From Planctomycetota bacterium (GTDB taxonomy: Bacteria > Planctomycetota > MHYJ01 > WSZJ01): a stretch of 64,000 bases of DNA. The notes beneath the pieces are model-generated. The model saw only the letters and a program-made list of their open reading frames with translations, searched no databases and was not told the origin of the DNA. This document shows, one piece after another, positions 8,540-43,776 of this stretch; position 1 is the stretch's first letter, and each line of letters begins with the position of its first letter. Location of the stretch: assembly GCA_016190145.1 (NCBI GenBank), contig JACPRD010000130.1, forward strand, positions 6,528 through 70,527, written 5' to 3'. Made by a program: the position numbers and the translations under genes.

Positions 8540-10632
8540 TCCTGGAATTCTCTCGCCCGATCCGCGCTCCCGCAGAACTCCTCCGCTCCGCACACCTTCG
8601 CGCATCCCTCCGACGCCACGCCGTCCAGGAACTCCACGAAGTCCAGCTCGCGGTCCTCGCGCCCCCGCTCGCGCGCGAACTTGCGGACGATCTCGATCGC
8701 GGGAAGGGTGTCGCGGCCCATGACGTGCTGGAGCTGGAAGTGGAGGACGCCTTCGTAGGAGCGGTAGACGACCTCGGTGCAGACGAGCTTGTCGGCGCTG
8801 AAGAAATCGAACTCGTAGTCGTACGGCTTCCCGTGGTGCCCGAAGGCCTTGAGGATCGCCTGCGCCTTCTTCTCCTTCGACACGCGCGGGCGCAGGACGG
8901 CGACGTGGTCGGCGTGCATCGAGTGTTCGAGCGAGTTGAAGATGACTCCCTCGCTCACCGCCTCGATCACGTTGCACCGCTTTCCGTCCGGCGCCGGCCG
9001 CCGGAACTCCTCGAGCTTGGACTTGATGGCGGGATCGTCGGCAATCCCGAGCGCACGCAGGTCCTCTTCGGTGCCGACGTAAAGCGCGGCGTGCGGCCAG
9101 AAACCCGGGAGGAAGGCGTTCGAGAGGAAGAAACTCCGGCGCTCGAGCAGGATGTCGCCGGGTTCGAGCTTCGTCTTCAGCATGCCGATCTGCTCGTGGG
9201 AGATGAACGGCTTTCGCGTCACGATGCGCGTGTCGCCGATCCACTCCGACAGCTGCGACTGGATCGCGTAGACCGGCGAGTACGCGTCGTCCTTCACCCG
9301 GTCCACCATCCGCCGCAGCCAGTTGCGGTGCGTCTGGATGTCCAGCCCGCGCGCCGTCGCGATCCCCCGCTTCAGCCTCTCCTCGAACCAGTCCAGCTCC
9401 TCACGCGGCCACACCTCCTCCGCGCGCCACCCACCCAGGCGCTCCTCGAAGTAGGCGGCCATCTCTTCGAAGCGCTCGACGTTCCGGTCAGCGGAAATGC
9501 CGGCGGCGATCCGGTCGAACATCCCGGCCGCGATGCCGAACGTCGGGTCGGGCTCGTTGAGCTTCCGCCGCCCCTCGCTCCAGTCCTGCCACGCCACCAC
9601 GACGCGCCCGCTCGACTCGCAGACGAGCGTCGCGGCGCCGAACGCCAGGAGGAAGCAGCGCGCGCGCAGGAGCGGGTCCTTGACCGCATCGAACCCGGCG
9701 TAGATCGCCAGGATGCGCAGGAGCGCCGACCGGCACGACAGGTACGTCATGTACGTCGCCTTGAGCTCGTCGTCCTCCTCGGGCAGCAGGACCTTCCGCT
9801 CGCGGCCGTTCACGGCGGCCTCGAGGCGGGTGCGAAGCGGCTGCATCCGCGCCGCGGAAGCCTCCGCGCCGTCCGCCGCCGCGCGCAGCCGCTTGTAGTC
9901 GGTCTCGACCTGCGCCCGGATCTCTTCGTCCGTCAGCCCGGCCAGCGCGGAAGGAAACGCCTCGTAGATCGCGTCCCCGAAACCCGTGATGCGGCCGACG
10001 TAGAGGCCGCCGAGGAACAGGAGCGCCTGCGAAGCGCCGAACGCGGAGTACCGGAGCCACGCGGGGAGTTTCGGGGGAAGGGCGTAGTTCGCGACGCGCC
10101 AGCGATGGAAGACGATGACGGTGCATCCGACCACGACGGCGGCCGCCACGGCGATCATCGCGACATACCACGTCGGCGGGTCGGAGAGGATGTCTTTTCG
10201 CGCCACGAGCGCGATCCACAGGAGCCCGTGCACCACGATCGAAACCGCCGTGACGCGCCCCAGCCGCGTCTTCCACTCGATCCCCAGCAGCCTGAGCGCC
10301 CGCAGGTGCGCGGCCGCGAGCGACGGCACCGCCGCCGCCCACCAGAGCCGCCAAAGGTCGGCCTCCTGCTTCGCGTCCGTCCAGACCAGCAGCACGAACG
10401 CGAACTGCGATGCCGCGACGAAGACCAGCCCCGCGGCGCCCATCCCGGGCCGCGGCGGCGGCGGCCGCAGATAAATGGTCGTGATCCACGCCCCGATCGC
10501 CAGCGCGACCGCCGTAAGCATCGACTGCGCGAGCCCCGCCGTGAACGCCTTGCCGAGCACGCCGTACGCGAACATCACCGCCGCGACGGACGTGAGGAGC
10601 CAGGCCACGCGCGAGACGAGCTTGAGCGCCAT
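8536..10632 (-). CDS. polytopic membrane protein with C-terminal YiiX-like permuted papain-fold (NlpC/P60 superfamily) domain
   Basis: 698-aa ORF. N-terminal hydrophobic helices. C-terminus GDILLERRSFFLSNAFLPGFWPHAALYVG ... KLVCTEVVYRSYEG has His before Cys, as in permuted papain-like enzymes. Confidence 0.6.
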   Translation of the reverse strand: MALKLVSRVAWLLTSVAAVMFAYGVLGKAFTAGLAQSMLTAVALAIGAWITTIYLRPPPPRPGMGAAGLVFVAASQFAFVLLVWTDAKQEADLWRLWWAAAVPSLAAAHLRALRLLGIEWKTRLGRVTAVSIVVHGLLWIALVARKDILSDPPTWYVAMIAVAAAVVVGCTVIVFHRWRVANYALPPKLPAWLRYSAFGASQALLFLGGLYVGRITGFGDAIYEAFPSALAGLTDEEIRAQVETDYKRLRAAADGAEASAARMQPLRTRLEAAVNGRERKVLLPEEDDELKATYMTYLSCRSALLRILAIYAGFDAVKDPLLRARCFLLAFGAATLVCESSGRVVVAWQDWSEGRRKLNEPDPTFGIAAGMFDRIAAGISADRNVERFEEMAAYFEERLGGWRAEEVWPREELDWFEERLKRGIATARGLDIQTHRNWLRRMVDRVKDDAYSPVYAIQSQLSEWIGDTRIVTRKPFISHEQIGMLKTKLEPGDILLERRSFFLSNAFLPGFWPHAALYVGTEEDLRALGIADDPAIKSKLEEFRRPAPDGKRCNVIEAVSEGVIFNSLEHSMHADHVAVLRPRVSKEKKAQAILKAFGHHGKPYDYEFDFFSADKLVCTEVVYRSYEGVLHFQLQHVMGRDTLPAIEIVRKFARERGREDRELDFVEFLDGVASEGCAKVCGAEEFCGSADRAREFQE

Positions 10633-10641
10633 GGGCGCCGA

Positions 10642-11058
10642 TCATAGCAGGTGGTGTACGACGAGGCTCCCGTAGACCGCCGTCTGGAAACTGAACAACG
10701 CGACCAAGAGCACGTGCCCGACCGCGACCGCGCGCCCCGGTGGCCAGTCCGCATGGCTGAAATAGAAGACGTCGACCCCGAGCCGCGCCGCCCAGAAGAC
10801 GGCGATGAACGCCGCGATCGCCACCGCCGCGCGGTCGCCCCGCAGCATCTCCTCCCGCAGCCCCAGCGTCATCACACCGAACGCCACGATCGTGAGCACC
10901 GTAAACGCCCCGTACACCCACATCAGCTTGCGGTTCAGCGGACGCAGCCGCGGCAACTCCTCCGCCCACCCCAGCCGCGACGGCACCTGGAAGGAAGCGG
11001 CAAGCACGAGAAAATGGCCGAGCCCGGCGAGGAGCAGAAGGGTGCGGAAGGTGAGCAT
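10642..11058 (-). CDS. small integral membrane protein, unknown function
   Basis: 138-aa ORF with four hydrophobic segments and high GC3. Confidence 0.5.
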   Translation of the reverse strand: MLTFRTLLLLAGLGHFLVLAASFQVPSRLGWAEELPRLRPLNRKLMWVYGAFTVLTIVAFGVMTLGLREEMLRGDRAAVAIAAFIAVFWAARLGVDVFYFSHADWPPGRAVAVGHVLLVALFSFQTAVYGSLVVHHLL

Positions 11059-11207
11059 GGCTCCCTCCTAAGCGGGTCCGGGGAAGTCCATGCGGATCCG
11101 CGAAAACGTCTTGTGGACCCGCTTACCCCGAGCGAGCGAAGCGAGTCGAGGGGTAGGCCGGCCCGGCGACAAGCCCCACTCCGAAGGAATTTCCCCGATC
11201 CGTTTGG

Positions 11208-12473
11208 CTAAAGCGCCCCCAGGACCCTCAGCATCGGTGTGACCACGTTCTCCACGAACGGCGGATGGAACAGGATCGGCGCGGGAAGCGCGACGAGCGC
11301 CCACGCGAACGCCCGCCCCGAAAGCCCGCGGTCCAGCCCGAGCCGCTTCCCCACCGCGGACTTCTCCAGCGCCACGCCGAGCCCCTGCGCGACGAAGTAC
11401 AGCGTGGGCAGCCCCCAGCCCGCGCGGGCGGGAAGCGAGACGACGAGTTCATGGATGAGGCCGGACGCCAGGAACACGAGGAGCATCGGTGCCGCCGGCC
11501 CGAGGCGCCTCAGAGGCCGCACCACGAGATCGCGCGCAAGGTCGCTGAACGCGAGGTTCCACCGGCCGCGCCAGAAATCGGCGGGCGACGCGGCGAGGAG
11601 CGGCGCGTTCATGAGCGGGCGTGCGTCGGCGCCGCGCGCGCGCCAGCCGCACGAGAGAGCGTGGAAGAGGCCGCAATGAAGGGCGAGAATGATCCCGGCC
11701 ATCGCGGTCCACGGCGCAGCCGGGCCGGGAAGATGCCGTGCGACGCCCCAGAGGAGCGCGGCGCCGAGCATGATCTTGAGCGCCGCCGCGCCCCACTCGC
11801 CCGCGCCGGGCCGCGCGGGCGCGGGCGCGCGCAGGAATCGCGCGGCGTCCATCCCGGGCCAGAGGAAGAGGTACGCCAGCGACCGCCCGAGCGGCGCGCG
11901 CGGCACGCGCCACCACGTGAGCCACTTGAACCCCGCGAAGAACGCGCCCGCCACCGCTGCCATCACGATCCACCCGGGGGCGCGCAGCGTCGCCGCCACC
12001 GCCGCGGCCGGAAGCACGGCCAGCGGGATCCAGCCCGGCGCCGCGGGCGGCGCATGTTCGACCCCGCATTCGCCTCCAAGACAGTGCCGCCGGGCCGAGA
12101 ACCACCCATACGCCGCGCCCAGCATCCGCGCGACGACCGGCACCCGCGACGCGAGCCACAGCGGCCACGCCCACCAGATCCCGCGCGCAATCTCCGACAC
12201 GGCCTCCGCCCCGCCGAACGCGCGCCCGCCGCCGGCCAGGAAGGCCATTTCGGAAGGGGGTTCGCCGGGGCGCAGGCCGAGCCGGCGCCGGACCCAGGGG
12301 ACCTGGATCGGCTCGAACAGGTAGCCGTAGTTGCACAGAAGGGGCGCGAAGCGGCCCGCGATGCCCCGGCAGGCGCGGCAATCCGCGTCGTAGCAGATCC
12401 AGCCGGCGAACGGCCGGGGATCGGCCTCGGGGTCGCTGTAGAACCAGGCGCTTCGGGCTCTCGTTGCGTTCAT
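11208..12473 (-). CDS. DCC1-like thiol-disulfide oxidoreductase (DUF393) fused to MBOAT_2/wax-synthase-like membrane acyltransferase
   Basis: ORF 11208..13508 trimmed to ATG 12473 (MNATRARSAWFYSD...). N-terminus WICYDADCRACRG (CxxC). C-terminal multi-TM region with FWRGRWNLAFSD and GLIHE motifs. Confidence 0.6.
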   Translation of the reverse strand: MNATRARSAWFYSDPEADPRPFAGWICYDADCRACRGIAGRFAPLLCNYGYLFEPIQVPWVRRRLGLRPGEPPSEMAFLAGGGRAFGGAEAVSEIARGIWWAWPLWLASRVPVVARMLGAAYGWFSARRHCLGGECGVEHAPPAAPGWIPLAVLPAAAVAATLRAPGWIVMAAVAGAFFAGFKWLTWWRVPRAPLGRSLAYLFLWPGMDAARFLRAPAPARPGAGEWGAAALKIMLGAALLWGVARHLPGPAAPWTAMAGIILALHCGLFHALSCGWRARGADARPLMNAPLLAASPADFWRGRWNLAFSDLARDLVVRPLRRLGPAAPMLLVFLASGLIHELVVSLPARAGWGLPTLYFVAQGLGVALEKSAVGKRLGLDRGLSGRAFAWALVALPAPILFHPPFVENVVTPMLRVLGAL

Positions 12474-12523
12474 GACCGTTCTTTCTGTAAAAGAAGAAAT
12501 CCCCTTCGAAAAAAAGGGGCGAC

Positions 12524-13079: not shown

Positions 13080-13469
13080 TATATGACACAATCCCGCCCC
13101 TGTCAAGCTCCCGCCTGGTCCCACGGATTCCCCCGAACCTTTCCACCCCCGCCCGCGATGAACTCTCTGTCGCCCGGCGCCACGGGACCGTAGGTCAACA
13201 GGAGATCGCCCGGCTGTGGCCCAGGAGACGTCGGTGCAACCCCGACCGGTCCCTTGAAAGGACGGCGCATGCCAGACGACGGAAGTGCGAATCGCCCCGA
13301 AGCGATCCCGCACCAACGATTGTCCAGACGCAGGTCCCGAAACCCGCTCGTTTGCGGGTCGAGAGGCTCTTTGACATCCGGCGGACTTTCCCAGGGCCGG
13401 CCCCCGGCCCCCATTCTCTCCCCTTCTCTCGGGGCCGGGGACCGGTCCGATTCTCTCTCTTCCCTCGCC

Positions 13470-13542
13470 TGGGGTGTCGTCTAACGGCTGAGGACGGCGG
13501 CCTCTCACGCTGCAGATGCAGGTTCAACTCCTGTCACCCCGA
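13470..13542 (+). tRNA. tRNA-Glu(CUC)
   Basis: Manual cloverleaf. Acceptor TGGGGTG/CACCCCG; D GTCT/GGAC; AC GCGGC-CTCTCAC-GCTGC (anticodon 13504-13506); T GCAGG-TTCAACT-CCTGT. No CCA. Confidence 0.8.
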
Positions 13543-13652
13543 TTCGGGAAGCGGAACGGAGGCCCGCGCTGCGGCGCCGGAGCGATGTCCCGGTATTCCC
13601 GAGGCAGTCCACCGGCGCCTCCGCGCGGGCCCCACGTTCCGCTTCCCGAATC
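13541..13652 (+). repeat. inter-tRNA GC-rich extended hairpin element H1
   Basis: 18-bp basal stem GATTCGGGAAGCGGAACG / CGTTCCGCTTCCCGAATC. Inner stems GGCCCGCGC/GCGCGGGCC and GGCGCCGG/CCGGCGCC. First nt is nt 72 of tRNA-Glu. Confidence 0.75.
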
Positions 13653-13671
13653 GGCGTAAAAAGAAAAGCAC

Positions 13672-13744
13672 GTCCTGGTAGCTCAACCAGAAGAGCGCCA
13701 GTCTCCGAAGCTGGAGGGTGCAGGCGCGAATCCTGCCCAGGACA
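13672..13744 (+). tRNA. tRNA-Arg(CCG), atypical T and D loops
   Basis: Acceptor GTCCTGG/CCAGGAC; AC CCAGT-CTCCGAA-GCTGG (anticodon 13705-13707); T GCAGG-CGCGAAT-CCTGC (C54 G55). D loop AACCAGAA lacks GG. Confidence 0.65.
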
Positions 13745-13748
13745 TCTC

Positions 13749-13819
13749 TGCGGGATGGATCAGGAGTTGATCGGCGGTCTCATAAGCCGCAAAGGAGGGT
13801 GCAAGTCCCTCTCCCGCTA
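13749..13819 (+). tRNA. tRNA-Met(CAU), initiator-like
   Basis: Acceptor TGCGGGA/TCCCGCT with a 1:72 U.U mismatch; D stem GATC/GATC (A11:U24); AC GCGGT-CTCATAA-GCCGC (anticodon 13781-13783); T GAGGG-TGCAAGT-CCCTC (G55); A73. Confidence 0.65.
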
Positions 13820-13822
13820 TCT

Positions 13823-13919
13823 TCAATTCGGGAGTCGTGAGACGCGCGCTGGACGCGAGAGGCGCGCGCAAGGTGCGCGCCTCGAGCGGCCGGCGCACGG
13901 CTCGCGACTCCCGAATTGA
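13823..13919 (+). repeat. inter-tRNA GC-rich extended hairpin element H2
   Basis: Basal stem TCAATTCGGGAGTCG / CGACTCCCGAATTGA. Inner hairpin GAGGCGCGC-GCAAGGT-GCGCGCCTC. Ends 1 nt before tRNA-Cys. Confidence 0.75.
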
Positions 13920-13920
13920 G

Positions 13921-13994
13921 GCGCGTGTGCCCGAGTGGTCGAAGGGTCCGGTTTGCAAAATCGGAATCCGCTGGTTCGAATCCAGCCGCGCGCT
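13921..13994 (+). tRNA. tRNA-Cys(GCA)
   Basis: Acceptor GCGCGTG/CGCGCGC; AC CCGGT-TTGCAAA-ATCGG (anticodon 13955-13957); T GCTGG-TTCGAAT-CCAGC. Confidence 0.85.
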
Positions 13995-14002
13995 TTCTCG
14001 CA

Positions 14003-14074
14003 CGGGCTGTAGCGCAGGGGAAGCGCGCTTCGTTGGGGTCGAAGAGGTCGGAAGTTCGAACCTTCCCAGCCCGA
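14003..14074 (+). tRNA. tRNA-Pro(GGG)
   Basis: Acceptor CGGGCTG/CAGCCCG (C1:G72); D GCGC/GCGC; AC CTTCG-TTGGGGT-CGAAG (anticodon 14035-14037); T GGAAG-TTCGAAC-CTTCC. Confidence 0.85.
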
Positions 14075-14080
14075 TATTTC

Positions 14081-14154
14081 GGGGGCGTCGTCTAGGGGCT
14101 CAGGACACCGCCCTGTCACGGCGGAGACCACGGGTTCAAATCCCGTCGCCCTCG
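14081..14154 (+). tRNA. tRNA-Asp(GUC)
   Basis: Acceptor GGGGGCG/CGCCCTC; D GTCT/GGAC; AC CCGCC-CTGTCAC-GGCGG (anticodon 14115-14117); T ACGGG-TTCAAAT-CCCGT. Confidence 0.85.
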
Positions 14155-14156
14155 TT

Positions 14157-14257
14157 TCGATGCGCGCAGCGCTCCGCAGAGGCGGCGGTCGCACGTCGGC
14201 CCGGCTGCGCCGGGCCTCGCGCGACCGCTCGCCCCTGCTACGCGCCGCGCGCATCGA
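14157..14257 (+). repeat. inter-tRNA GC-rich extended hairpin element H3 (same subfamily as H8)
   Basis: Basal stem TCGATGCGCGC / GCGCGCATCGA. Apical hairpin GGCCCGGC-TGC-GCCGGGCC. Shares the CGCTCGCCCCTGCT segment with H8. Starts 3 nt after tRNA-Asp. Confidence 0.75.
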
Positions 14258-14278
14258 CGGAACGGCAAGGAAATGCAA

Positions 14279-14351
14279 AGGGGTGTGGGCTAACCGGTAA
14301 GTCACCTCCCTGTTAAGGAGGTTGATCCAGGTTCGAATCCTGGTGCCCCTG
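14279..14351 (+). tRNA. tRNA-Asn(GUU)
   Basis: Acceptor AGGGGTG/TGCCCCT; AC CCTCC-CTGTTAA-GGAGG (anticodon 14312-14314); T CCAGG-TTCGAAT-CCTGG. Confidence 0.8.
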
Positions 14352-14363
14352 TTCGTTTTCGAA

Positions 14364-14453
14364 GGGATTCGCGCGGGTCCAGGACTGCCTGTGCCTTCGT
14401 TGAGCCAAGTTGGACCGTGACCCTGACGGGCGACGCACGGCCCGCCGAATCCC
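14364..14453 (+). repeat. degenerate inter-tRNA hairpin element H3b
   Basis: Basal stem GGGATTCG(C)GCGGG / CCCGC(C)GAATCCC with one bulge on each strand. Interior pairs only partially (GGTCC...GGACC). Confidence 0.45.
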
Positions 14454-14465
14454 CACGCAAACCAC

Positions 14466-14556
14466 GGATGGTTGGCAGAGCCCGGCTTAATGCGCCTGTC
14501 TCGAAAACAGGAGCTCCTGAAACACGGAGCCGGAGGTTCGAATCCTCCACCATCCT
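14466..14556 (+). tRNA. tRNA-Ser(CGA), class II
   Basis: Acceptor GGATGGT/ACCATCC; AC CCTGT-CTCGAAA-ACAGG (anticodon 14502-14504); long variable arm GCTCC...GGAGC; T GGAGG-TTCGAAT-CCTCC. Confidence 0.85.
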
Positions 14557-14560
14557 TCCA

Positions 14561-14649
14561 GGGGAGATGGCCGAGCGGTTGAAGGCACCGCGGTGCTAAC
14601 GCGGCGGGCCCCCTCGGGGGCCCCGAAGGTTCGAATCCTTCTCTTCCCG
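14561..14649 (+). tRNA. tRNA-Ser(GCU), class II
   Basis: Acceptor GGGGAGA/TCTTCCC; AC CCGCG-GTGCTAA-CGCGG (anticodon 14595-14597); long variable arm GGGCCCCC-TC-GGGGGCCC; T GAAGG-TTCGAAT-CCTTC. Confidence 0.85.
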
Positions 14650-14660
14650 TCCAATCTCCC

Positions 14661-14732
14661 GGGGGCGTGGCCGACCGGCAAGGCACCTGCCCGGCAGGCA
14701 GGACCACGAGGGTTCAAGTCCCTCCGCTTCCA
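14661..14732 (+). tRNA. tRNA-Ala(GGC) with C33
   Basis: Acceptor GGGGGCG/CGCTTCC including G3:U70; AC CCTGC-CCGGCAG-GCAGG (anticodon 14693-14695, position 33 = C); T GAGGG-TTCAAGT-CCCTC. Confidence 0.7.
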
Positions 14733-14744
14733 TCCGCTCGACAA

Positions 14745-14816
14745 GGGGGTGTGGCCTAACGGCAAGGCACCTGCGTCGCAAGCAGGAGTATGAGGGTTCA
14801 AATCCCTCCACTTCCA
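14745..14816 (+). tRNA. tRNA-Ala(CGC)
   Basis: Acceptor GGGGGTG/CACTTCC including G3:U70; AC CCTGC-GTCGCAA-GCAGG (anticodon 14777-14779); T GAGGG-TTCAAAT-CCCTC. Confidence 0.8.
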
Positions 14817-14821
14817 TCCGA

Positions 14822-14892
14822 AGGGGCGTCGTTCAGCAGGAGGACCCCGGTTTCCAAGTCCGGTGACGAGGGTGCAATTCCTTCCGCCCCTG
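14822..14892 (+). tRNA. tRNA-Trp(CCA), atypical T loop
   Basis: Acceptor AGGGGCG/CGCCCCT; AC CCGGT-TTCCAAG-TCCGG (31:39 U.U; anticodon 14854-14856); T GAGGG-TGCAATT-CCTTC (G55). Confidence 0.65.
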
Positions 14893-14911
14893 TTGTCAGC
14901 CCGCCGTTCCT

Positions 14912-15013
14912 CCAATTCGAGGCTTGCGGAGAGGGACGGCACGAGCGCGCCCCCGAGCGCGCAGCACGAGGGGCGTGCGCGAGCGCCGGGCCTCGCAGCG
15001 AGTTTCGAATTGG
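14912..15013 (+). repeat. inter-tRNA GC-rich extended hairpin element H4 (same subfamily as H5)
   Basis: Basal stem CCAATTCGA / TCGAATTGG, extended by G.U-rich pairing. 50-nt core at 14938-14987 is 49/50 identical to 15446-15495. Last nt is nt 1 of tRNA-Glu(UUC). Confidence 0.75.
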
Positions 15014-15083
15014 GGCGCGTCGGCTAGTGGAAGGCCCCCAGGCTTTCATCCTGACAGCGCGGGTTCGATTCCCGCCGCGCCTA
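15013..15083 (+). tRNA. tRNA-Glu(UUC)
   Basis: Acceptor GGGCGCG/CGCGCCT; AC CCAGG-CTTTCAT-CCTGA (27:43 C.A; anticodon 15045-15047); T GCGGG-TTCGATT-CCCGC. Confidence 0.8.
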
Positions 15084-15090
15084 TCTGTGA

Positions 15091-15163
15091 AGGAGCGTCG
15101 CTTAGTGGTTGAGCACCGGTTTCTTAAACCGGACGAGGAAGGGTTCGAATCCCTCCGCTCCTA
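15091..15163 (+). tRNA. tRNA-Lys(CUU)
   Basis: Acceptor AGGAGCG/CGCTCCT; AC CCGGT-TTCTTAA-ACCGG (anticodon 15123-15125); T AAGGG-TTCGAAT-CCCTC with a 49:65 A.C mismatch or a bulged A. Confidence 0.75.
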
Positions 15164-15167
15164 TCCC

Positions 15168-15239
15168 GGGGTTGTAGCTCAAAGGCCGAGCACCTGTTTT
15201 TTAAGCAGAGAGATGTGGGTTCGATCCCCACCGGCCCCA
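15168..15239 (+). tRNA. tRNA-Lys(UUU)
   Basis: Acceptor GGGGTTG/CGGCCCC; D GCTC/GAGC; AC CCTGT-TTTTTAA-GCAGA (anticodon 15200-15202); T GTGGG-TTCGATC-CCCAC. Confidence 0.8.
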
Positions 15240-15250
15240 TTCGGTCCAAG

Positions 15251-15322
15251 AGGGGAGTCAGGTAACTGGTAACCACCGAGTCCCTGAAACTCGCCATGCT
15301 GGTTCGAATCCAGCCTCCCCTA
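15251..15322 (+). tRNA. tRNA-Gln(CUG) with C33
   Basis: Acceptor AGGGGAG/CTCCCCT; AC CGAGT-CCCTGAA-ACTCG (anticodon 15284-15286, position 33 = C); T GCTGG-TTCGAAT-CCAGC. Confidence 0.7.
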
Positions 15323-15332
15323 TGAAAAACGC

Positions 15333-15403
15333 GGGCACGTAGGCTAACGGCAGGCCACCAGGTTCTCAGCCTGACAGCGAGGGTTCGATTCCCTCCGTGC
15401 CTA
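15333..15403 (+). tRNA. tRNA-Glu(CUC), paralog of the tRNA at 15013
   Basis: Acceptor GGGCACG/CGTGCCT; AC CCAGG-TTCTCAG-CCTGA (anticodon 15365-15367); T GAGGG-TTCGATT-CCCTC. Confidence 0.8.
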
Positions 15404-15419
15404 TCTGAAAGCCCTTCCT

Positions 15420-15521
15420 CTCGATTCGAGGAGCGGGAGGTGAAGGGCACGAGCGCGCCCCCGAGCGCGCAGCGCGAGGGGCGTGCGCGAGCGCCCTTCA
15501 CCGGACGCTCCTCGAATCGAG
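15420..15521 (+). repeat. inter-tRNA GC-rich extended hairpin element H5 (same subfamily as H4)
   Basis: 16-bp basal stem CTCGATTCGAGGAGCG / CGCTCCTCGAATCGAG. Inner stem GGTGAAGG/CCTTCACC encloses the conserved 50-nt core at 15446-15495. Last nt is nt 1 of tRNA-Phe. Confidence 0.8.
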
Positions 15522-15593
15522 GTGAAGTAGCTTAGACGGTCTGAGCGCCTGGTTGAAAACCAGGAGGCGGAGGTTCGATACCTCCCTTCACCA
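15521..15593 (+). tRNA. tRNA-Phe(GAA)
   Basis: Acceptor GGTGAAG/CTTCACC; AC CCTGG-TTGAAAA-CCAGG (anticodon 15555-15557); T GGAGG-TTCGATA-CCTCC. Confidence 0.85.
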
Positions 15594-15597
15594 TTGC

Positions 15598-15670
15598 GCG
15601 GGCGTCGTCCAACGGACCAGGACCCGAGACTACGAATCTCGAGATGAGGGTTCGATTCCTTCCGCCCGTA
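15598..15670 (+). tRNA. tRNA-Arg(ACG)
   Basis: Acceptor GCGGGCG/CGCCCGT; D GTCC/GGAC; AC CGAGA-CTACGAA-TCTCG (anticodon 15632-15634); T GAGGG-TTCGATT-CCTTC. Confidence 0.85.
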
Positions 15671-15673
15671 TCG

Positions 15674-15745
15674 CGGGGCGTGGCCGAGAAGAGAGGCTCC
15701 CGTTTCCTAAACGGGACCACGCAGGTGCGACTCCTGCCGTCCCGA
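15674..15745 (+). tRNA. tRNA-Arg(CCU), atypical T and D loops
   Basis: Acceptor CGGGGCG/CGTCCCG; AC CCCGT-TTCCTAA-ACGGG (anticodon 15706-15708); T GCAGG-TGCGACT-CCTGC (G55). D loop GAGAAGAGA has no GG. Confidence 0.65.
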
Positions 15746-15749
15746 CTTG

Positions 15750-15820
15750 GCTCCCGTCGTCCAGCGGAAGGGCCCCCGTCCTCTAAACGGGCGACGCAGG
15801 TTCGACCCCTGCCGGGAGCG
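15750..15820 (+). tRNA. tRNA-Arg(UCU) with C33
   Basis: Acceptor GCTCCCG/CGGGAGC; AC CCCGT-CCTCTAA-ACGGG (anticodon 15782-15784, position 33 = C); T GCAGG-TTCGACC-CCTGC. Confidence 0.7.
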
Positions 15821-15828
15821 TCATCCAA

Positions 15829-15909
15829 GGGCGTGTACGGAATGGGATAACCGCGCCGGCCGTAACCCGGCAGCCTCGCGCTTAGAAGGTTCGAGTCCTT
15901 CCGCGCCCA
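15829..15909 (+). tRNA. tRNA-Tyr(GUA), class II, with C33
   Basis: Acceptor GGGCGTG/CGCGCCC; AC GCCGG-CCGTAAC-CCGGC (anticodon 15862-15864, position 33 = C); 13-nt variable arm; T GAAGG-TTCGAGT-CCTTC. Confidence 0.75.
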
Positions 15910-15947
15910 TTGATCACGAGAGACTTCCAGGAAATGCTTTGCCTCCC

Positions 15948-16066
15948 AGAGTTTGAGAGAAAACCGGGATGGGGGGCGGAGTCGGCCGGCTCGTCCAGTC
16001 CCGGCCGCATCGTGGGCCTTCCTGCCGGCCGACGGAGCATCCCAGCCCGGTTTTCTCTCAAACTCT
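15948..16066 (+). repeat. inter-tRNA extended hairpin element H6
   Basis: Perfect 21-bp basal stem AGAGTTTGAGAGAAAACCGGG / CCCGGTTTTCTCTCAAACTCT. Inner stem GTCGGCCGG/CCGGCCGAC. Ends 1 nt before tRNA-Gly(GCC). Confidence 0.8.
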
Positions 16067-16067
16067 T

Positions 16068-16139
16068 GCGGCTGTAGCTCAACGGCAGAGCGCCACGTTG
16101 CCAACGTGGATACTGCGGGTTCAAGCCCCGCCAGTCGCT
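16068..16139 (+). tRNA. tRNA-Gly(GCC)
   Basis: Acceptor GCGGCTG/CAGTCGC; D GCTC/GAGC; AC CCACG-TTGCCAA-CGTGG (anticodon 16100-16102); T GCGGG-TTCAAGC-CCCGC. Confidence 0.85.
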
Positions 16140-16145
16140 TTCTTT

Positions 16146-16219
16146 CAGGACGTAGCGGAGCCTGGTAACGCGCTTCGTTCGGGGCGAAGAGACCGGTGGT
16201 TCGAATCCACCCGTCCTGA
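16146..16219 (+). tRNA. tRNA-Pro(CGG)
   Basis: Acceptor CAGGACG/CGTCCTG (C1:G72); AC CTTCG-TTCGGGG-CGAAG (anticodon 16180-16182, G37); T GGTGG-TTCGAAT-CCACC. Confidence 0.85.
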
Positions 16220-16235
16220 TTTTCTCGGCAGACGC

Positions 16236-16308
16236 GCTTCTGTAGCCCAACGGAAGAGGCACCAAGCTCAGAACTTGGCGAGTGGAGGTTCGAATCCTCC
16301 CGGAAGCA
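16236..16308 (+). tRNA. class I (short variable arm) tRNA with Leu anticodon CAG
   Basis: Acceptor GCTTCTG/CGGAAGC; D arm TAGCCCAACGGAAGAGGC; AC CCAAG-CTCAGAA-CTTGG (anticodon 16269-16271); variable region only 5 nt (CGAGT); T GGAGG-TTCGAAT-CCTCC; A73. Confidence 0.7.
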
Positions 16309-16324
16309 TTTTGAATCTCAGAAC

Positions 16325-16395
16325 GGTCTCGTAGCTCAAAGGCAGAGCGCCGGTCTCACATACCGGTGACGGAGGTTCGAGTCCTTCCGGGACCA
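16325..16395 (+). tRNA. tRNA-Val(CAC)
   Basis: Acceptor GGTCTCG/CGGGACC; D GCTC/GAGC; AC CCGGT-CTCACAT-ACCGG (anticodon 16357-16359); T GGAGG-TTCGAGT-CCTTC. Confidence 0.85.
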
Positions 16396-16405
16396 TGGAC
16401 ACACG

Positions 16406-16477
16406 GCTCCTGTGGTCTAGCGGCCGGGCACCAGCGCGACATGCTGGGCAAGGCAGGTTCGACTCCTGCCGGGAGCA
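16406..16477 (+). tRNA. tRNA-Val(GAC) with G32 C33
   Basis: Acceptor GCTCCTG/CGGGAGC; AC CCAGC-GCGACAT-GCTGG (anticodon 16438-16440, position 33 = C); T GCAGG-TTCGACT-CCTGC. Confidence 0.7.
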
Positions 16478-16483
16478 CTTCAT

Positions 16484-16554
16484 GCCTCTCTAGTTCAATG
16501 GGAGAACCCCTGCTTCCCACGCAGGTGACGAGGGATCGATACCCTCGAGAGGCT
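16484..16554 (+). tRNA. tRNA-Gly(CCC), A54 T loop
   Basis: Acceptor GCCTCTC/GAGAGGC; D GTTC/GAAC; AC CCTGC-TTCCCAC-GCAGG (anticodon 16516-16518); T GAGGG-ATCGATA-CCCTC. Confidence 0.75.
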
Positions 16555-16558
16555 CTTG

Positions 16559-16629
16559 GCGCCTGTAGCTCAAGGGGAGAGCCCCCGCCCGATAAGCGGG
16601 AGATGCAGGTTCAAGTCCTGACTGGCGCA
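16559..16629 (+). tRNA. tRNA-Ile(GAU) with C33; two stem mismatches
   Basis: Acceptor GCGCCTG/CTGGCGC (6:67 U.U); AC CCCGC-CCGATAA-GCGGG (anticodon 16591-16593, position 33 = C); T GCAGG-TTCAAGT-CCTGA (49:65 G.A). Confidence 0.6.
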
Positions 16630-16673
16630 TTGAGACCCGGGAGGAGTTCCCGGACCGACTGCCTCGGCATCCC

Positions 16674-16775
16674 AGAGCGCGTGAACGATTCGATTGGAGG
16701 CGCGCGGCCGGGGCGAGCGACGCGAAGCGGCGCCAGGTCCGGCCCCCGCCGGAGATCGAGTCGTTCACGCGCTCT
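16674..16775 (+). repeat. inter-tRNA GC-rich extended hairpin element H7
   Basis: 15-bp basal stem AGAGCGCGTGAACGA / TCGTTCACGCGCTCT, continued by TTCGAT/ATCGAG pairing. The 3' arm overlaps the first 5 nt of tRNA-Thr (16771-16775). Confidence 0.75.
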
Positions 16776-16841
16776 TGTAGCTCAACGGTGAGCACCTGCC
16801 TCGTAAGCAGGGGGATGTGGGTTCGATTCCCACCAGGAGCT
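16771..16841 (+). tRNA. tRNA-Thr(CGU)
   Basis: Acceptor GCTCTTG/CAGGAGC; D GCTC/GAGC; AC CCTGC-CTCGTAA-GCAGG (anticodon 16802-16804); T GTGGG-TTCGATT-CCCAC. Confidence 0.85.
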
Positions 16842-16843
16842 TC

Positions 16844-16938
16844 GGAATCGCGCGCGCTTCGCAGGGGCGGCTCGCGCACGGCGGCCGGGCTTCGCCCGGC
16901 CTGGCGCGCTCGCTCGCCCCTGCTGCGCGCGCGATTTC
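16844..16938 (+). repeat. inter-tRNA GC-rich extended hairpin element H8 (same subfamily as H3)
   Basis: Basal stem GGAATCGCGCGCGC / GCGCGCGCGATTTC. Also GCAGGGGCG/CGCCCCTGC. Apical hairpin GGCCGGGC-TTC-GCCCGGCC. Starts 3 nt after tRNA-Thr. Confidence 0.8.
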
Positions 16939-16967
16939 GAAAAGGGAAAGGCGCCGGGAAGGAGAAG

Positions 16968-17040
16968 GCTCTCGTAGCCCAACGGCAGAGGCGGCGGTCT
17001 CAAGAACCGCGCGGTGCAGGTTCGAATCCTGCCGGGAGCA
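16968..17040 (+). tRNA. class I (short variable arm) tRNA with Leu anticodon CAA
   Basis: Acceptor GCTCTCG/CGGGAGC; D arm TAGCCCAACGGCAGAGGC; AC GCGGT-CTCAAGA-ACCGC (anticodon 17001-17003); 5-nt variable region (GCGGT); T GCAGG-TTCGAAT-CCTGC; A73. Confidence 0.7.
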
Positions 17041-17050
17041 TCGAAGAAAC

Positions 17051-17125
17051 GCCCTCGTAGCCCAATCTGGCAGAGGCCCATGGTTGAGGGCCATGGTGGT
17101 GATGGTTCGATTCCATCCGAGGGCA
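17051..17125 (+). tRNA. class I (short variable arm) tRNA with Leu anticodon GAG
   Basis: Acceptor GCCCTCG/CGAGGGC; D arm TAGCCCAATCTGGCAGAGGC; AC CATGG-TTGAGGG-CCATG (anticodon 17086-17088); 5-nt variable region (GTGGT); T GATGG-TTCGATT-CCATC; A73. Confidence 0.7.
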
Positions 17126-17248: not shown

Positions 17249-19810
17249 CTAAAGCCGCGGATCGACCGGCTCGCTTTCCAGTGCCAGGACGCCGAAAACA
17301 CATTCGTGGACGCGGCGAAGCGGCTCGTTGCGGACGAAACGCTCGAGCCCCTCGACTCCGAGGGCGAACTCCCTCATCGCAAGAGAACGCTTCGCGCCGA
17401 GGCCGCGGGAGCGGAGCCGACTCAGGTTCGCGGGGATCGAGTAGTCCGGGCCATAGATGATGCGGAGGTACTCGGGTCCGCGGCACTTGACGGCTGGTTG
17501 AGCGACTCCCCTCCGCCCCCGCGCGACGAAGTCCAGCGGCTTTACGACCATTCCCTCTCCACCGCGCGAAGTCAGTTCCTCCCACCAGCGGATCCCCGCC
17601 TGTTCGCTGGCCTCATCTGTGACATTGACCTCGATGAAACCGGTCTCGATGAGGATCTTGCTTCCCTTGCAGAATCGGGAGATGGCGCTCATGTGCCACA
17701 GGTGGTTCTTGTCGAAATACGTTTTCCCCTCGGTGGCCAGCACGTGGAACGGCGCCAGCTTGATGTCCGCCAGCGTCTTGACCGGCCAGCAGTACCCGCG
17801 ATAGGCGGTCACGTATTTCTCGGCGAGAGAAGCGCGTTCGACCGAGCGTTCCAGCAGCGAGGCGACGTCAGCTCCCCGCGCTGCTGCCGTTTTCAGTGTT
17901 TCGACCGAGTCCCTCAGCGCTGCCCCTGACGCCGCCCCGACGGCCGCGTACTGCCGCTTCACCAGCTCCTGGGCCTTCGCCGACCATGGCATCAGTTCGC
18001 AATCGAGGCAGACCCAATCCGTGTCGAATTCCTTCCAGGATTCTGAGCGGTCCAGCGCTTCCCGCAGATGCGCCAGCAGCTCTGTCTCAAACGCGAGATC
18101 TTCGAAGAAGCGGCGCCCGGTGCGAGTCACGCAGATGCCGCTTTCACTGACGATTCCGAATCTGCGACGGGCTGCGTCTTCATTGCGACAAAGCACCACG
18201 ACGACCCGTGATCCCATGTGCTTCTCTTCGCACAGCACCTGCGGAATTCCCTCGTGCCGGAAGTACGCGAAGGCCTGCGCCGGATGCTCCAGCAGACTCC
18301 CCTCCTGCGAGGTCTCCGGCGGCGACATGGTCGGCGGAAGGTAGATCAGCCACTTCGGGTTGGCTGCAAAGCGGCTCATGACCTCGAGCGCGGCGATCGC
18401 GTTCTCTTCGCGGATCGTCACGTTGTGATGGAGGCGCGTCGTCACGATCCTCTTCCCGATCACGTCCGCGAGGTCGAGCAGGTCGTCGTGGGCCTGCTGC
18501 GGGGAGAGCGCCTGAGTCTGGAATTCCGCCGGATGGAAGGGCTTCGCCGGTTTCGCGTACATGGCGCCCGCGGGGACTGAAACAAGCTCCTTCTCCGGGT
18601 AGCGAAGCGCCGTGAGCTTGCCGCCGAAAACGCAGCCGGTATCGATGTTGATCGTGTTGTTGAGCCACTCGGGCGCCGGCACGGGCGTGTGTCCGTAGAC
18701 GACCATGGACGGCCCGCGATACTCCGCGGCCCAGTTGTTGCGGACCGGCAGGCCGAATTCGTCGGTCTCCCCCGTCGTCTCGCCGTAGAGTGCGAACTCC
18801 CGCACCTTGCCGGAGCCTCGACCCTGCATGGTCTCTTTCATCCCGGCGTGCGCCACGACGAGCCCGTTGTCGTCGAGCACGTAGTGGGAGACCAGGTCGT
18901 CAATGAAGGCGGCCGTCTTCTCGCGAAATGCCGCCGGTTCGCGGTCCAGCTGCGCGAGGGATTCGGCAAGACCGTGGGTGATCTGCACGTCCTTGCCGCG
19001 GAGTTTCCGGAGCAGCTTGACGTCGTGGTTTCCCGGGACGCAAAGCGCGGTCCCGGCCTCCACCATGCCCATCACGAGCCGCAGCACGTCCGGAGTGTTC
19101 GGTCCACGATCGACGAGATCGCCCACGAAGACTGCTTTGCGATTCCCGGGCGGCTTCGCGGCAATTGTGCGCTCCCCAGTCGTCGTCACGTCGACGACAT
19201 ACCCGAGACGCTCAAGAAGCGCCTTCGTCTCGTCGAAGCAGCCGTGAATGTCCCCGATGATGTCGAACGGGCCATGATCGCTCTTCCGGTTGTTCCACAA
19301 CGGCTCTCGCTCGATGGTTGCCGCATCGATCTCTTCCGGGCTTGCCAGAACGTGGACGTGCCGGAAGCCTTCAACCTGAAGGTTCCGGAGCGATTTGCGA
19401 AGCTGCTGCGACTGCTGCCGGATGACATGTGGACCGAACGTGCGCTCACTACGCCCGCGGTTGCGGTCCTGGCACAGCCGTTCCGGAAGGTCCAGCACGA
19501 TCGCGACGGGCAGGCAATGGTAGTCCCGGGCCAGCGCGACGAGGGGTTTGCGCGCTTCGGCCTGGACGTTCGTCGCATCGATGACGGTGAGCTTGCCCGC
19601 CGCCAGGCGTTTTCCGGCGATGTAGTGCAGCACCTCAAAGGCCGCGTTCGTGGCAGCTTGATTGTTCTCGTCGTCCGACACGAGGCCGCGGCAGAAGTCT
19701 GAGGACAGGATCTCCGTCGGGAGAAAGTGCTTCCGCCCGAACGTGGACTTCCCGCTGCCCGAGGGGCCGATCAGGACAACGAGGGACAGCTCAGGTATTT
19801 TCAGTTTCAC
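17249..19810 (-). CDS. pnkp: polynucleotide kinase-phosphatase/ligase Pnkp (RNA repair)
   Basis: ORF 17249..19918 trimmed to GTG 19810, which overlaps the hen1 TGA (GTGA). Kinase P-loop GPSGSGKST. Metallophosphoesterase motifs GDIHGC, GDLVDRGP, GNHD. Nucleotidyltransferase-type Lys motif EEKHMGSR in the C-terminal ligase-like domain. 853 aa. Confidence 0.85.
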   Translation of the reverse strand: MKLKIPELSLVVLIGPSGSGKSTFGRKHFLPTEILSSDFCRGLVSDDENNQAATNAAFEVLHYIAGKRLAAGKLTVIDATNVQAEARKPLVALARDYHCLPVAIVLDLPERLCQDRNRGRSERTFGPHVIRQQSQQLRKSLRNLQVEGFRHVHVLASPEEIDAATIEREPLWNNRKSDHGPFDIIGDIHGCFDETKALLERLGYVVDVTTTGERTIAAKPPGNRKAVFVGDLVDRGPNTPDVLRLVMGMVEAGTALCVPGNHDVKLLRKLRGKDVQITHGLAESLAQLDREPAAFREKTAAFIDDLVSHYVLDDNGLVVAHAGMKETMQGRGSGKVREFALYGETTGETDEFGLPVRNNWAAEYRGPSMVVYGHTPVPAPEWLNNTINIDTGCVFGGKLTALRYPEKELVSVPAGAMYAKPAKPFHPAEFQTQALSPQQAHDDLLDLADVIGKRIVTTRLHHNVTIREENAIAALEVMSRFAANPKWLIYLPPTMSPPETSQEGSLLEHPAQAFAYFRHEGIPQVLCEEKHMGSRVVVVLCRNEDAARRRFGIVSESGICVTRTGRRFFEDLAFETELLAHLREALDRSESWKEFDTDWVCLDCELMPWSAKAQELVKRQYAAVGAASGAALRDSVETLKTAAARGADVASLLERSVERASLAEKYVTAYRGYCWPVKTLADIKLAPFHVLATEGKTYFDKNHLWHMSAISRFCKGSKILIETGFIEVNVTDEASEQAGIRWWEELTSRGGEGMVVKPLDFVARGRRGVAQPAVKCRGPEYLRIIYGPDYSIPANLSRLRSRGLGAKRSLAMREFALGVEGLERFVRNEPLRRVHECVFGVLALESEPVDPRL

Positions 19811-21450: not shown

Positions 21451-21963
21451 TCAGGCCTTGCCCCGCGCTTTGCCAGCGCGCGCCTTCTTCGCCGCCGGCT
21501 TCCCCTTCTTTCTGCCCGCCAGCATCCCCTCGACCGCCGCGACGTACTTCTTCGCGGGCACCCGCCGGATCGCCTTCCCGATGACGTCGAGCGGAATGTC
21601 CTCGACGCTCGTGAACCGGATGCAGGCCTTGCCCATGTCGAGCTTCTTGCCCGATTTCGCCCAGGCCTCGCGGAACCACGCGGCCTCGCCGGCGTTGCCG
21701 TAGACGGACATGAGGTAGAGAGACAGGTAGTTTTTCTGGGAAGCGAGCATGGCGAACCCGAGGGGCTGCTTCGGGTCGCAGTGGTATCCGGCGGGATAGA
21801 CGCGGTGCGGCACGTAGTAGCAGATCATGCCGTACTGCATTCCCTCCTCGTAGTCCTTGTCGAGGTTGGCGAGGATCAGCTTGCGGACGGCCTCGAGCGC
21901 CTTGCGCCGGTCGGCAGGAAGCGCGGCGAGGTAGGCGGCGACGGTCTTCGCGGACGAAGGCAT
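21451..21963 (-). CDS. DUF1801 (YdhG-like) domain protein with Lys-rich tail
   Basis: C-terminal part of ORF 21451..24723 from ATG 21963 (MPSSAKTVAAYLAALPADRRKALEAVRKLI...). The upstream part of that ORF is an out-of-frame shadow of the molybdoenzyme gene. Confidence 0.65.
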   Translation of the reverse strand: MPSSAKTVAAYLAALPADRRKALEAVRKLILANLDKDYEEGMQYGMICYYVPHRVYPAGYHCDPKQPLGFAMLASQKNYLSLYLMSVYGNAGEAAWFREAWAKSGKKLDMGKACIRFTSVEDIPLDVIGKAIRRVPAKKYVAAVEGMLAGRKKGKPAAKKARAGKARGKA

Positions 21964-43775: not shown

Positions 43776-43776
43776 T

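Follow-up and report, generated by a model that had tools for sequence, protein, structure and literature searches.

The stretch of DNA analyzed here, referred to as the window, comprises 64,000 nucleotides (nt) of the Planctomycetota bacterium assembly GCA_016190145.1 (contig JACPRD010000130.1, positions 6,528 to 70,527) and carries, on its plus strand at 13184–17125, a long array of 33 transfer RNA (tRNA) genes covering all 20 amino acids. Nine of the spacers of this array are long, and eight of these are occupied by single hairpins that are probably mobile elements lodged between the tRNA genes. The array was delineated from ARAGORN predictions, Rfam tRNA matches, and a table of the spacers: ARAGORN detected 31 tRNA genes, to which Rfam added tRNA-His (13184–13254) and tRNA-Trp (14822–14892). 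The CCA end is encoded in none of the 33 genes, and the native spacers are 3–16 nt long with T nearly always as their first base. A tRNA array unit of the long type (L-array) has been defined by at least 20 tRNA genes at a density of at least two per kilobase (kb) on one strand (PMC4758250); with 33 genes in 3.9 kb on a single strand, the window locus belongs to this type. The nine long spacers lie where an original prediction made from the sequence alone had placed them, and the tRNAs that they separate form blocks of 1 to 7, as that prediction had also stated.

The eight hairpins are long and imperfect, 95–119 nt in size, with a minimum free energy (MFE) of -69 to -88 kcal/mol. Their z-scores against dinucleotide shuffles range from -7.7 to -11.3, and their folding energies were equalled by 0 of 200 shuffles. 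The ninth spacer (14364–14453), which the original prediction had counted among its nine hairpins while already calling it degenerate, has a z-score of -1.9, and its centroid structure retains just a foot of 15 base pairs (bp). A scan of the whole 64 kb in 120-nt segments, with correction for GC content, gave hairpins of the array as its seven strongest outliers and as eight of its nine strongest; the longest inverted repeats outside the array are found at two loci and are unrelated to them. As predicted, a U-tract follows none of the nine hairpins: each is succeeded by a purine-rich tail or by a tRNA, and a terminator scan called none of them. An Rfam search of the window region and of four other arrays, at permissive and gathering thresholds, let only tRNA pass, the best non-tRNA score being that of mir-2545 (43.9 bits against a gathering score of 94), and the hairpins match no family at the gathering threshold.

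Three hairpins directly follow a tRNA gene and are oriented on the minus strand. Element 1 (13541–13671) is composed of a hairpin (13541–13652), which begins inside the final 2 nt of tRNA-Glu(ctc), and a purine-rich tail (13653–13671); it has a z-score of -9.5, an MFE of -94.7 kcal/mol on the minus strand against -88.4 on the plus strand, mismatches of the G type on the minus strand, and four additional pairs that extend into the tRNA end. Element 3 (14156–14278) has its hairpin at 14157–14257, 1 nt past tRNA-Asp, followed by the tail CGGAACGGCAAGGAAATGCAA (14258–14278), with a z-score of -8.1 and an MFE of -99.0 on the minus strand against -85.1 on the plus strand. In element 9 (16842–16967), the hairpin (16844–16938; z -7.7) comes directly after tRNA-Thr and precedes a purine-rich tail (16939–16967). 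Elements 3 and 9 are paralogues that form one subfamily, element 3 being 83% identical to 16854–16930, and match the covariance model described below with 45.5 and 39.1 bits, respectively.

The five remaining stable hairpins are oriented on the plus strand and lie against the downstream tRNA. Element 2 (13820–13919) has nearly lost its leader (TCT), and its hairpin (13823–13919) ends flush with the 5' end of tRNA-Cys; it shows the lowest z-score (-11.3), an MFE of -83.8 on the plus strand against -74.7 on the minus strand, and three G.T, four A.G and one A.C mismatch on the plus strand. Element 5 (14893–15013) carries the leader TTGTCAGCCCGCCGTTCCT (14893–14911) and a hairpin (14912–15013) ending on the first base of tRNA-Glu(ttc), with a z-score of -7.8, MFE values of -69.3 (plus) and -56.8 (minus), and four G.T and four A.G mismatches on the plus strand. 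Element 6 (15404–15527) has a leader at 15404–15419 and a hairpin at 15420–15521 whose stem runs 7 nt into tRNA-Phe, to 15527; the arms of this inverted repeat (I9) span 15414–15462 and 15479–15527, its z-score is -10.2, and its plus-strand mismatches are A.G (6), G.T (1), and A.C (1). Element 7 (15910–16066) consists of a leader (15910–15947) and a hairpin (15948–16066) that ends 1 nt before tRNA-Gly(gcc), with a z-score of -7.7 and, on the plus strand, four A.G, three G.T, and no A.C mismatches. Element 8 (16630–16775) has a leader at 16630–16673 and a hairpin at 16674–16775 that shares its final 5 nt with the start of tRNA-Thr (z -8.0; MFE -75.4 on the plus strand against -67.9 on the minus strand). 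The degenerate element 4 (14364–14453), to which no strand is assigned, keeps the foot GGGATTCGCGCGGG/CCCGCCGAATCCC around a non-palindromic interior and resembles the "family A" elements of other arrays. The basal motif proposed as common to most of the nine, ATTCGNG...CNCGAAT, often with T(C)GA at the extreme foot, is found in about half of the elements, and the nine are not one homogeneous family: beyond the pairs 5/6, whose cores are 92% identical, and 3/9, their sequences differ.

Turnover of the hairpins among five syntenic arrays

Four related arrays, all from metagenome-assembled genomes (MAGs) of Planctomycetota, were located by means of a 94% identical Pnkp and an invariant tRNA-Asn: L002 (= L010, H51-bin301_1), L009 (X3_MetaBAT.40), L011 (Ca. 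Brocadiia MAG_16), and L012 (Lake Fargette MAG). The comparison covers the five arrays, about 20 kb, and about 100 kb of non-array DNA; every spacer of at least 50 nt in the five arrays was folded. The order of the tRNAs is essentially identical across the arrays, and all five contain long hairpins, at differing junctions: each array holds between 5 and about 20, giving about 45 long-spacer elements in total, and occupancy varies at nearly every junction. The spacer lengths in the window, L002, L009, L011, and L012 are, respectively, 4, 197, 191, 28, and 190 nt at Arg-ccg/Met; 100, 6, 112, 3, and 131 nt at Met/Cys; 141, 3, 64, 5, and 130 nt at Ile/Thr; and 5, 2, 2, 11, and 137 nt at Gly-gcc/Pro-cgg. 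At two further junctions, values are listed for all but L011: 7, 115, 8, and 124 nt at Cys/Pro, and 126, 12, 2, and 106 nt at Thr/Leu-caa.

The hairpin cores fall into at least five subfamilies. Unrelated subfamilies occupy one and the same junction in different genomes (Met/Cys, upstream of Phe, Thr/Leu-caa, and Asp/Asn), and a blastn comparison of the long spacers detects related cores at differing junctions. The core of element 8, present in sense orientation at Ile/Thr in the window, is common to L012 Ile/Thr (antisense), L011 Asn/Ala (sense), and L011 Lys/Phe (antisense) (alignment A1). The elements have thus been copied between junctions, in both orientations, and have turned over among related genomes. 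Differential loss from an ancestor with all junctions filled was rejected as an explanation, since a given junction can carry unrelated subfamilies, or elements in opposite orientations, from one genome to another, and since related cores occupy different junctions.

Beyond the arrays, the elements are nearly absent. Blastn of all long spacers against the non-array DNA gave one convincing match and no other: the intergenic segment 56247–56324 of the window, on the minus strand, which begins 6 nt past the stop of the open reading frame (ORF) 54174–56243. It is homologous to element 7, matching one arm and the apex in reverse complement with 73% identity over 79 nt (E 8.5e-9, against 1.7e-5 for the best shuffled query), and no stable hairpin is left in it (z -0.5). 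Judging by this alignment, we read the segment as a decayed, truncated copy of an element 7 relative, and the family would therefore be strongly enriched in the array and not strictly confined there. As the elements were too heterogeneous for an all-element model, a covariance model was built from one subfamily and run with filters off. It recovered untrained window hairpins (E 0.0045 to 0.16), the best non-array matches having E-values of 0.23 in the window and 0.31 in other loci, and it found no match in the Nostoc array or in L006. There are no elements at the isolated tRNA genes Leu-gag of L002 and Ser-tga of L006, and the best-studied tRNA array, that of Nostoc PCC 7120 (pCC7120delta, 24 tRNAs detected), contains no long inverted repeats; hairpins are therefore not needed for array expression. 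A 34-mer of tRNA-Asn matched four genome contigs and none of the viral contigs, and a 26-mer had no match in the JGI metagenomes. A 22-mer from the conserved hairpin apex gave two chance matches in coding DNA and none in viral contigs, and blastn of the whole array against phage and plasmid collections matched single tRNAs only.

The spacers of the related arrays hold further features. A branched, non-hairpin element of about 80–140 nt, which starts TTCGACTCGCCCCGTGAGAGGCGC...GCGCCTCTCACGGGGGCTCGCTCATGGCGGAGCC, recurs at different junctions (L002 19044–19227 and 20006–20109; L009 1926–2097; L012 6239–6350 and 4551–4630); it is not present in the window and matches no Rfam family. The Arg-ccg/Met spacer opens in three arrays (L002 21138–21334, L009 115–305, and L012 7539–7728) with a terminator-like hairpin, CCGGCCCGGGC...GCCCGGGCCGG, followed by TTCTTTT, before an element whose hairpin abuts the downstream tRNA; in the window this spacer measures just 4 nt. 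Through this terminator-like hairpin, each of the L002, L009, and L012 arrays may be split into two separately transcribed units. Between tRNA-Tyr and tRNA-Gly(tcc), where the window has no gene, ARAGORN reports an odd tRNA in two arrays, with a four-base anticodon (tatg) in L002 (18879–18954) and as an 82-nt "tRNA-Gln(ttg)" in L012 (4381–4462). Short hairpins of about 27–39 nt are found in some spacers (L012 3481–3518, 3590–3628, 3370–3406, and 2782–2840; L002 20410–20436; L011 3298–3325). Those of L012 include three near-identical copies (TCCGCCTTCGCTCCTTCGGAGCTTCGGCGGA), while that of the L002 Ser/Ser spacer resembles what a deletion of the centre would leave of the long hairpin that L009 and L012 carry at this junction.

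Orientation and strand-specific folding of the elements

The elements share one layout: a pyrimidine-rich leader of 15–40 nt with a core of about GCCGTTTTCC, followed by an imperfect hairpin of 85–120 nt whose foot, often T(C)GA or ATTCG, is placed at a tRNA gene boundary in either orientation. In class 1 (22 elements), the hairpin directly adjoins the discriminator base with which the upstream tRNA ends, and a purine-rich tail of 16–40 nt comes after it; in class 2 (9 elements), the leader comes next to the upstream tRNA and the last base of the hairpin is position -1 relative to the downstream tRNA. Each class is the reverse complement of the other, as evidenced by the mirror-image spectra of stem mismatches in classes defined by position alone: on the tRNA-sense strand, class 1 has A.C 40, C.T 31, G.T 13, and A.G 1, and class 2 has A.C 4, C.T 1, G.T 16, and A.G 16. 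The leader motif agrees with this assignment, as GCCGTTTTCC is matched at 8 or more of its 10 positions in 12 of the 31 oriented leaders and in none of the 31 reverse complements (mean of 1.1 and maximum of 6 in 1000 shuffles). A scan with a simple regular expression for the leader motif showed no enrichment in the arrays, the pattern being too loose; the consensus match confined to oriented leaders was significant.

When all the stems are written leader-first, 150 mismatches are of the G type (G.T 71, G.A 62, and G.G 17), against 22 of the C type (A.C 12, C.T 6, and C.C 4), and the bias to the G type is seen in 29 of 30 informative elements (sign test, p 6e-8). In single strands, mismatches that contain G are the most stable and those that contain C the least. 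The leader-first spectrum agrees with this order of stability. Likewise, the leader-first strand, for most elements the antisense one relative to the tRNAs, is the better-folding one: with RNA parameters in 26 of 31 elements, by 6.6 kcal/mol on average (p 2.5e-5), and with DNA parameters in 25 of 31. The window hairpins obey this strand rule in 8 of 8 cases: those that start at 13823, 14912, 15420, 15948, and 16674 abut the downstream tRNA and fold better on the plus strand, while those that start at 13541, 14157, and 16844 abut the upstream tRNA and fold better on the minus strand. Mutational strand bias was ruled out as the source of the asymmetry because elements next to each other in one array can show opposite patterns. 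If the mobile-element reading is right, an RNA structure under selection can be told from a mobile DNA hairpin by a simple test, namely whether a change of orientation reverses the mismatch type.

The stems also change in a concerted manner. Three orthologous Arg/Met hairpins with 41 pairs show two-sided compensatory changes at five of them, and all their broken cells are G.A or G.G; in one subfamily of seven copies, from four arrays and five junction types, 17 of 32 consensus pairs carry compensatory changes. The hairpin is therefore kept by compensatory changes, and its fold is favoured on one specific strand, independently of the direction of tRNA transcription. The cores and apical loops are better conserved than the outer stems, which often run into the adjoining tRNA end: the mean number of extra pairs is 2.1, compared with 0.66 when the partners are permuted (maximum 1.43 in 2000 permutations), and 8 of 31 elements have at least four such pairs where 1.0 is expected. 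In the Pro/Leu element, the base that follows the discriminator and the one opposite it in the hairpin differ jointly, being C-G in L002 and T-A in L012.

Such stems could be functional modules of the tRNA precursor, cut by RNase III or shielding it from exonucleases, that split or insulate blocks of tRNAs and are kept by selection whatever their origin. Very stable hairpins set exactly at tRNA ends, the retention of 5 to about 20 of them in each of five arrays, the compensatory changes, and the reach of some stems 3–7 nt into the acceptor end, above chance, all speak in favour of this explanation, as do the reported effects of the cotranscribed Correia and ERIC hairpin repeats on mRNA stability and RNase cleavage (PMC3184786). 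The strand data are difficult to reconcile with it. Over all elements, G.U does not outnumber A.C on the tRNA-sense strand (32 versus 45), and the sense hairpin of the pre-tRNA is therefore not the object of selection; indeed, the antisense strand folds better in 19 of 22 class 1 elements, by 7.5 kcal/mol on average. Junction occupancy that differs among close relatives, the presence of both orientations, the oriented leader motif, and a Nostoc array that works without hairpins (PMC8421152) also speak against it, and a leader paired with the acceptor strand would be expected to impede the folding of the tRNA. Neither the conserved position nor the selection on the transcribed strand that characterize RNase III processing stems is observed. 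We thus consider it unlikely, although worth keeping in mind, that the hairpins are precursor modules: RNase III cleavage and insulation, both put forward in the original prediction, may occur as side effects, and the strand, orientation, and position data indicate that they are not the reason why the hairpins exist.

Palindromes could also arise with no dedicated transposase, if they grew locally by intrastrand template switching during replication and spread by recombination or gene conversion between the similar flanking tRNA genes. This would fit the lack of a transposase among the scanned window ORFs, the near-confinement of the elements to the array, the site-specific outer stems that run into the tRNA end, with the spacer side mirroring the tRNA side, and the short hairpin remnants that look like centre deletions of longer ones. 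Template switching and arm-to-arm conversion are, however, symmetric processes, which predict no strand-specific G-type mismatches that flip with orientation, nor can an element and its leader be jointly inverted by recombination between tRNA genes in direct repeat. Together with the related copy outside the array, which has no tRNA nearby, these points make such an origin improbable.

The hairpins as candidate mobile elements

The hairpins are in our view probably heterogeneous, non-autonomous, palindromic mobile elements of the REPIN or MITE (miniature inverted-repeat transposable element) kind, which have colonized the inter-tRNA spacers of the array in this Planctomycetota lineage. Of the four roles suggested earlier, that of MITE-like insertions at tRNA ends is the one supported by the variable occupancy of the junctions, the mixture of subfamilies and orientations, the paralogous copies, and the single decayed copy outside the array. 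The elements would move or be copied through a single-stranded hairpin intermediate, most likely of single-stranded DNA (ssDNA), with tRNA gene ends as their preferred target. The mobilizing enzyme would be encoded elsewhere in the genome, a HUH/Y1-type transposase (RAYT or the TnpA of IS200/IS605) being the obvious, if hypothetical, candidate.

Once inserted, the elements would be passengers in the polycistronic precursor. Cleavage by RNase Z after the discriminator base and by RNase P at +1 would free a hairpin RNA of about 100–130 nt, probably to be broken down by RNase III. Insertions between tRNAs should thus cost little because the tRNA-processing enzymes cut out inter-tRNA material, and such a release would explain why the spacers tolerate the elements. 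Each hairpin precedes, when read on its own strand, a sequence resembling the 5' strand of an acceptor stem, provided either by a real tRNA 5' end or by the complement of a tRNA 3' end, and this acceptor-stem-like sequence after every hairpin hints that targeting may be guided by structure. One may go further and imagine that the mover recognizes the cloverleaf of a tRNA gene in ssDNA and chooses its target accordingly, a mode of target choice that would be new, and/or that the freed hairpin RNAs of 100–130 nt have been co-opted as decoys or regulators in a tRNA-damage response served by the array and Pnkp/Hen1; we regard this extension as a long shot.

Several observations weigh against a mobile origin. 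No transposase, integrase, or HUH gene was found among the window ORFs scanned against Pfam or in the flanks of the other arrays. Neither a target-site duplication nor a fixed cleavage motif could be defined: by the standard of classical MITEs, which derive from insertion sequences with a DDE transposase, the ends are inverted repeats by construction and the comparison of filled with empty junctions shows no direct duplication, though the spacers evolve too fast for this to be a firm negative. No two copies are identical, the closest pair being 91.5% identical, and there is thus no sign of very recent movement. The cores are better conserved than the feet, which is the reverse of classical MITEs. 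The strand asymmetry appears under both RNA and DNA energy models, so that the folding molecule may be ssDNA or RNA; several hairpins are kept in every array and could be useful; and the evidence comes from no more than five arrays plus about 100 kb of DNA outside them. If the elements are indeed mobile, they form a bacterial family of mobile hairpins that is unusual in its niche, a long tRNA array, and in its target, the exact ends of the genes there, and they offer a natural case for the study of target choice by palindromic elements and of the upkeep of a single-strand fold. They would also call for caution before conserved-looking hairpins in tRNA operons are taken for processing signals.

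Surroundings of the array and comparison with known systems

The array is adjoined by a Pnkp gene (17249–19918), with a product identical to a protein of a "Planctomycetes bacterium" MAG, and, next to it, a Hen1 gene (19807–21204), both on the minus strand and convergent to the 3' end of the array. In L002, Pnkp and Hen1 (8607–12499) lie between tRNA-Leu(caa) and a displaced tRNA-Leu(gag). Overall, the pair stands beside the array in two of the four arrays with a readable 3' flank (the window and L002), and the flanks read in L009 and L012 carry other genes. Bacterial Hen1 partners Pnkp in the repair of RNA cut by ribotoxins (PMC4411300), and in Anabaena translational stress induces hen1-pnkP as well as the tRNA array (PMC8421152). 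That a long tRNA array is physically linked to Pnkp/Hen1 in two genomes is consistent with these reports and may reflect a common role in coping with tRNA damage.

The same neighbourhood had led to the speculative suggestion that the hairpins are precursors of small duplex RNAs tied to Hen1; they would be freed by RNase Z and RNase P, like the tRNA-linked pre-miRNA hairpins of murine gammaherpesvirus 68. Class 1 elements do place a hairpin immediately after a tRNA, Hen1 and Pnkp do adjoin the array in the window and L002, and there is a weak, sub-threshold likeness to Rfam models of microRNA (miRNA) precursors. This idea loses its main support because the L009 and L012 flanks carry other genes, so that the Hen1 link is not a general feature. 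Bacterial Hen1 acts with Pnkp in RNA repair (PMC4411300). In addition, the Rfam scores do not exceed 44 bits against gathering scores of at least 90, no Dicer- or Argonaute-type gene is found among the scanned window ORFs, and the orientation and mismatch asymmetry speak against a sense-RNA product, the better-folding strand tracking the orientation of the element and not tRNA transcription; small-RNA precursors are accordingly very improbable. It is hardly credible that the hairpins are attC-like recombination sites, with tRNA blocks as cassettes shuffled by an integron-type integrase, since the variable sequence, the constant size of about 90–120 nt, and the better folding of one strand, as in attC bottom strands, are outweighed by a tRNA order that stays constant while the hairpins move, by both orientations inside one array, by feet of the type T(C)GA or ATTCG and not RYYYAAC/GTTRRRY, and by the lack of an integrase among the scanned window ORFs.

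In three arrays, a conserved block, TCTTTGA(C/T)A(A/T)CCGGCGGA(C/T)(C/T)T(C/T)CCC, stands in the interval from tRNA-His to the tRNA after it (window 13369–13395; L002 about 21925–21955 on the minus strand; L011 about 3135–3165) and is followed by a GC-rich hairpin. A TTGACA-like hexamer is found inside it, and the block may be a promoter or regulatory site of the array, in which case tRNA-His would lie upstream of it. A promoter scan detected no sigma-70-like antisense promoters inside the window array. The other window ORFs scanned with Pfam are ordinary chromosomal genes, e.g., FtsK, triosephosphate isomerase, and YicC. Two of the encoded enzymes, an RNase T-family 3'-5' exonuclease (7612–8166, plus strand) and a YicC-like endoribonuclease (37860–38741, minus strand), are RNA processors that could act on tRNA precursors, with no evidence tying either to the array. 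The sole other strong hairpin in the window is a stable intergenic one of about 130 nt (5577–5710), located between two minus-strand ORFs, with z-scores of -5.1 on the plus and -6.9 on the minus strand and a sequence unrelated to the array elements. Tandem repeats of 7 and 14 nt (units AGTTGCCAGTGACC and CACTGGC) are found at 43510–43784 and 45974–46079: two arrays of these repeats face each other in a large imperfect palindrome, with a smaller copy 2.4 kb off, and they are unrelated to the tRNA hairpins.

Among known systems, the host locus itself is a typical L-array with very short native spacers, and such arrays have been reported in Planctomycetes (PMC4758250, PMC8421152). It differs by its hairpin-filled spacers, which neither of these two surveys mentions and which the Nostoc array lacks; our literature searches on palindromic elements in tRNA gene clusters retrieved no description of such elements. 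REPINs, hairpin-forming REP doublets that RAYT transposases mobilize, are the closest in form. Their putative intermediate is a hairpin with a 5' single-stranded tail, and their stems show compensatory changes (PMC3116915). Like them, the array elements are non-coding hairpins of two inverted arms in the size class of about 70–110 nt, with stems kept by compensatory changes, and have an asymmetric hairpin-plus-leader form that occurs in both orientations and in which the single-stranded fold is seemingly what matters. Unlike REPINs, they are devoid of conserved REP 16-mers and of GTAG/CGTC heads, having variable feet of the T(C)GA or ATTCG type; their sequences are diverse, the cores being better conserved than the feet; apart from the one decayed copy they keep almost entirely to one tRNA array, where REPINs are dispersed in extragenic space; and they have their foot exactly at tRNA gene ends and are accompanied by no RAYT among the scanned window ORFs or in the flanks of the other arrays.

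The hairpin MITEs Correia/NEMIS of Neisseria (104–157 bp), ERIC of enterobacteria (about 127 bp), and RUP of pneumococcus (107 bp) belong to the same size class (PMC3184786). They too are long imperfect palindromes, transcribed with neighbouring genes, whose presence varies between related strains. They have, however, conserved terminal inverted repeats, TA target duplications, and a genome-wide scatter, whereas the array elements show no target duplication in the junctions compared, variable feet, a strand-specific fold, and tRNA-boundary specificity. In IS200/IS605 elements, a functional imperfect hairpin is formed on one strand beside single-stranded sequence, and no target duplication is expected. 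The array elements resemble them in their one-strand imperfect hairpin with adjoining single-stranded sequence; they differ in being single hairpins of about 100 nt with no defined target motif and no TnpA nearby, in place of two end hairpins of about 20–30 nt and a defined target of 4–5 nt. In murine gammaherpesvirus 68, a tRNA or tRNA-like gene is followed by a pre-miRNA hairpin, in a eukaryotic, Pol III-driven arrangement that yields miRNAs. The direct succession of tRNA and hairpin is the same, and processing of the tRNA 3' end would likewise free the 5' end of the hairpin, but the array hairpins have about double the length, lie in both orientations, and show nothing that points to small-RNA production. 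REPIN- and MITE-like elements are in themselves known; the novel aspects of the present ones are their niche in a tRNA array, their precise placement at tRNA gene ends, and the clear strand-specific signature of their fold.

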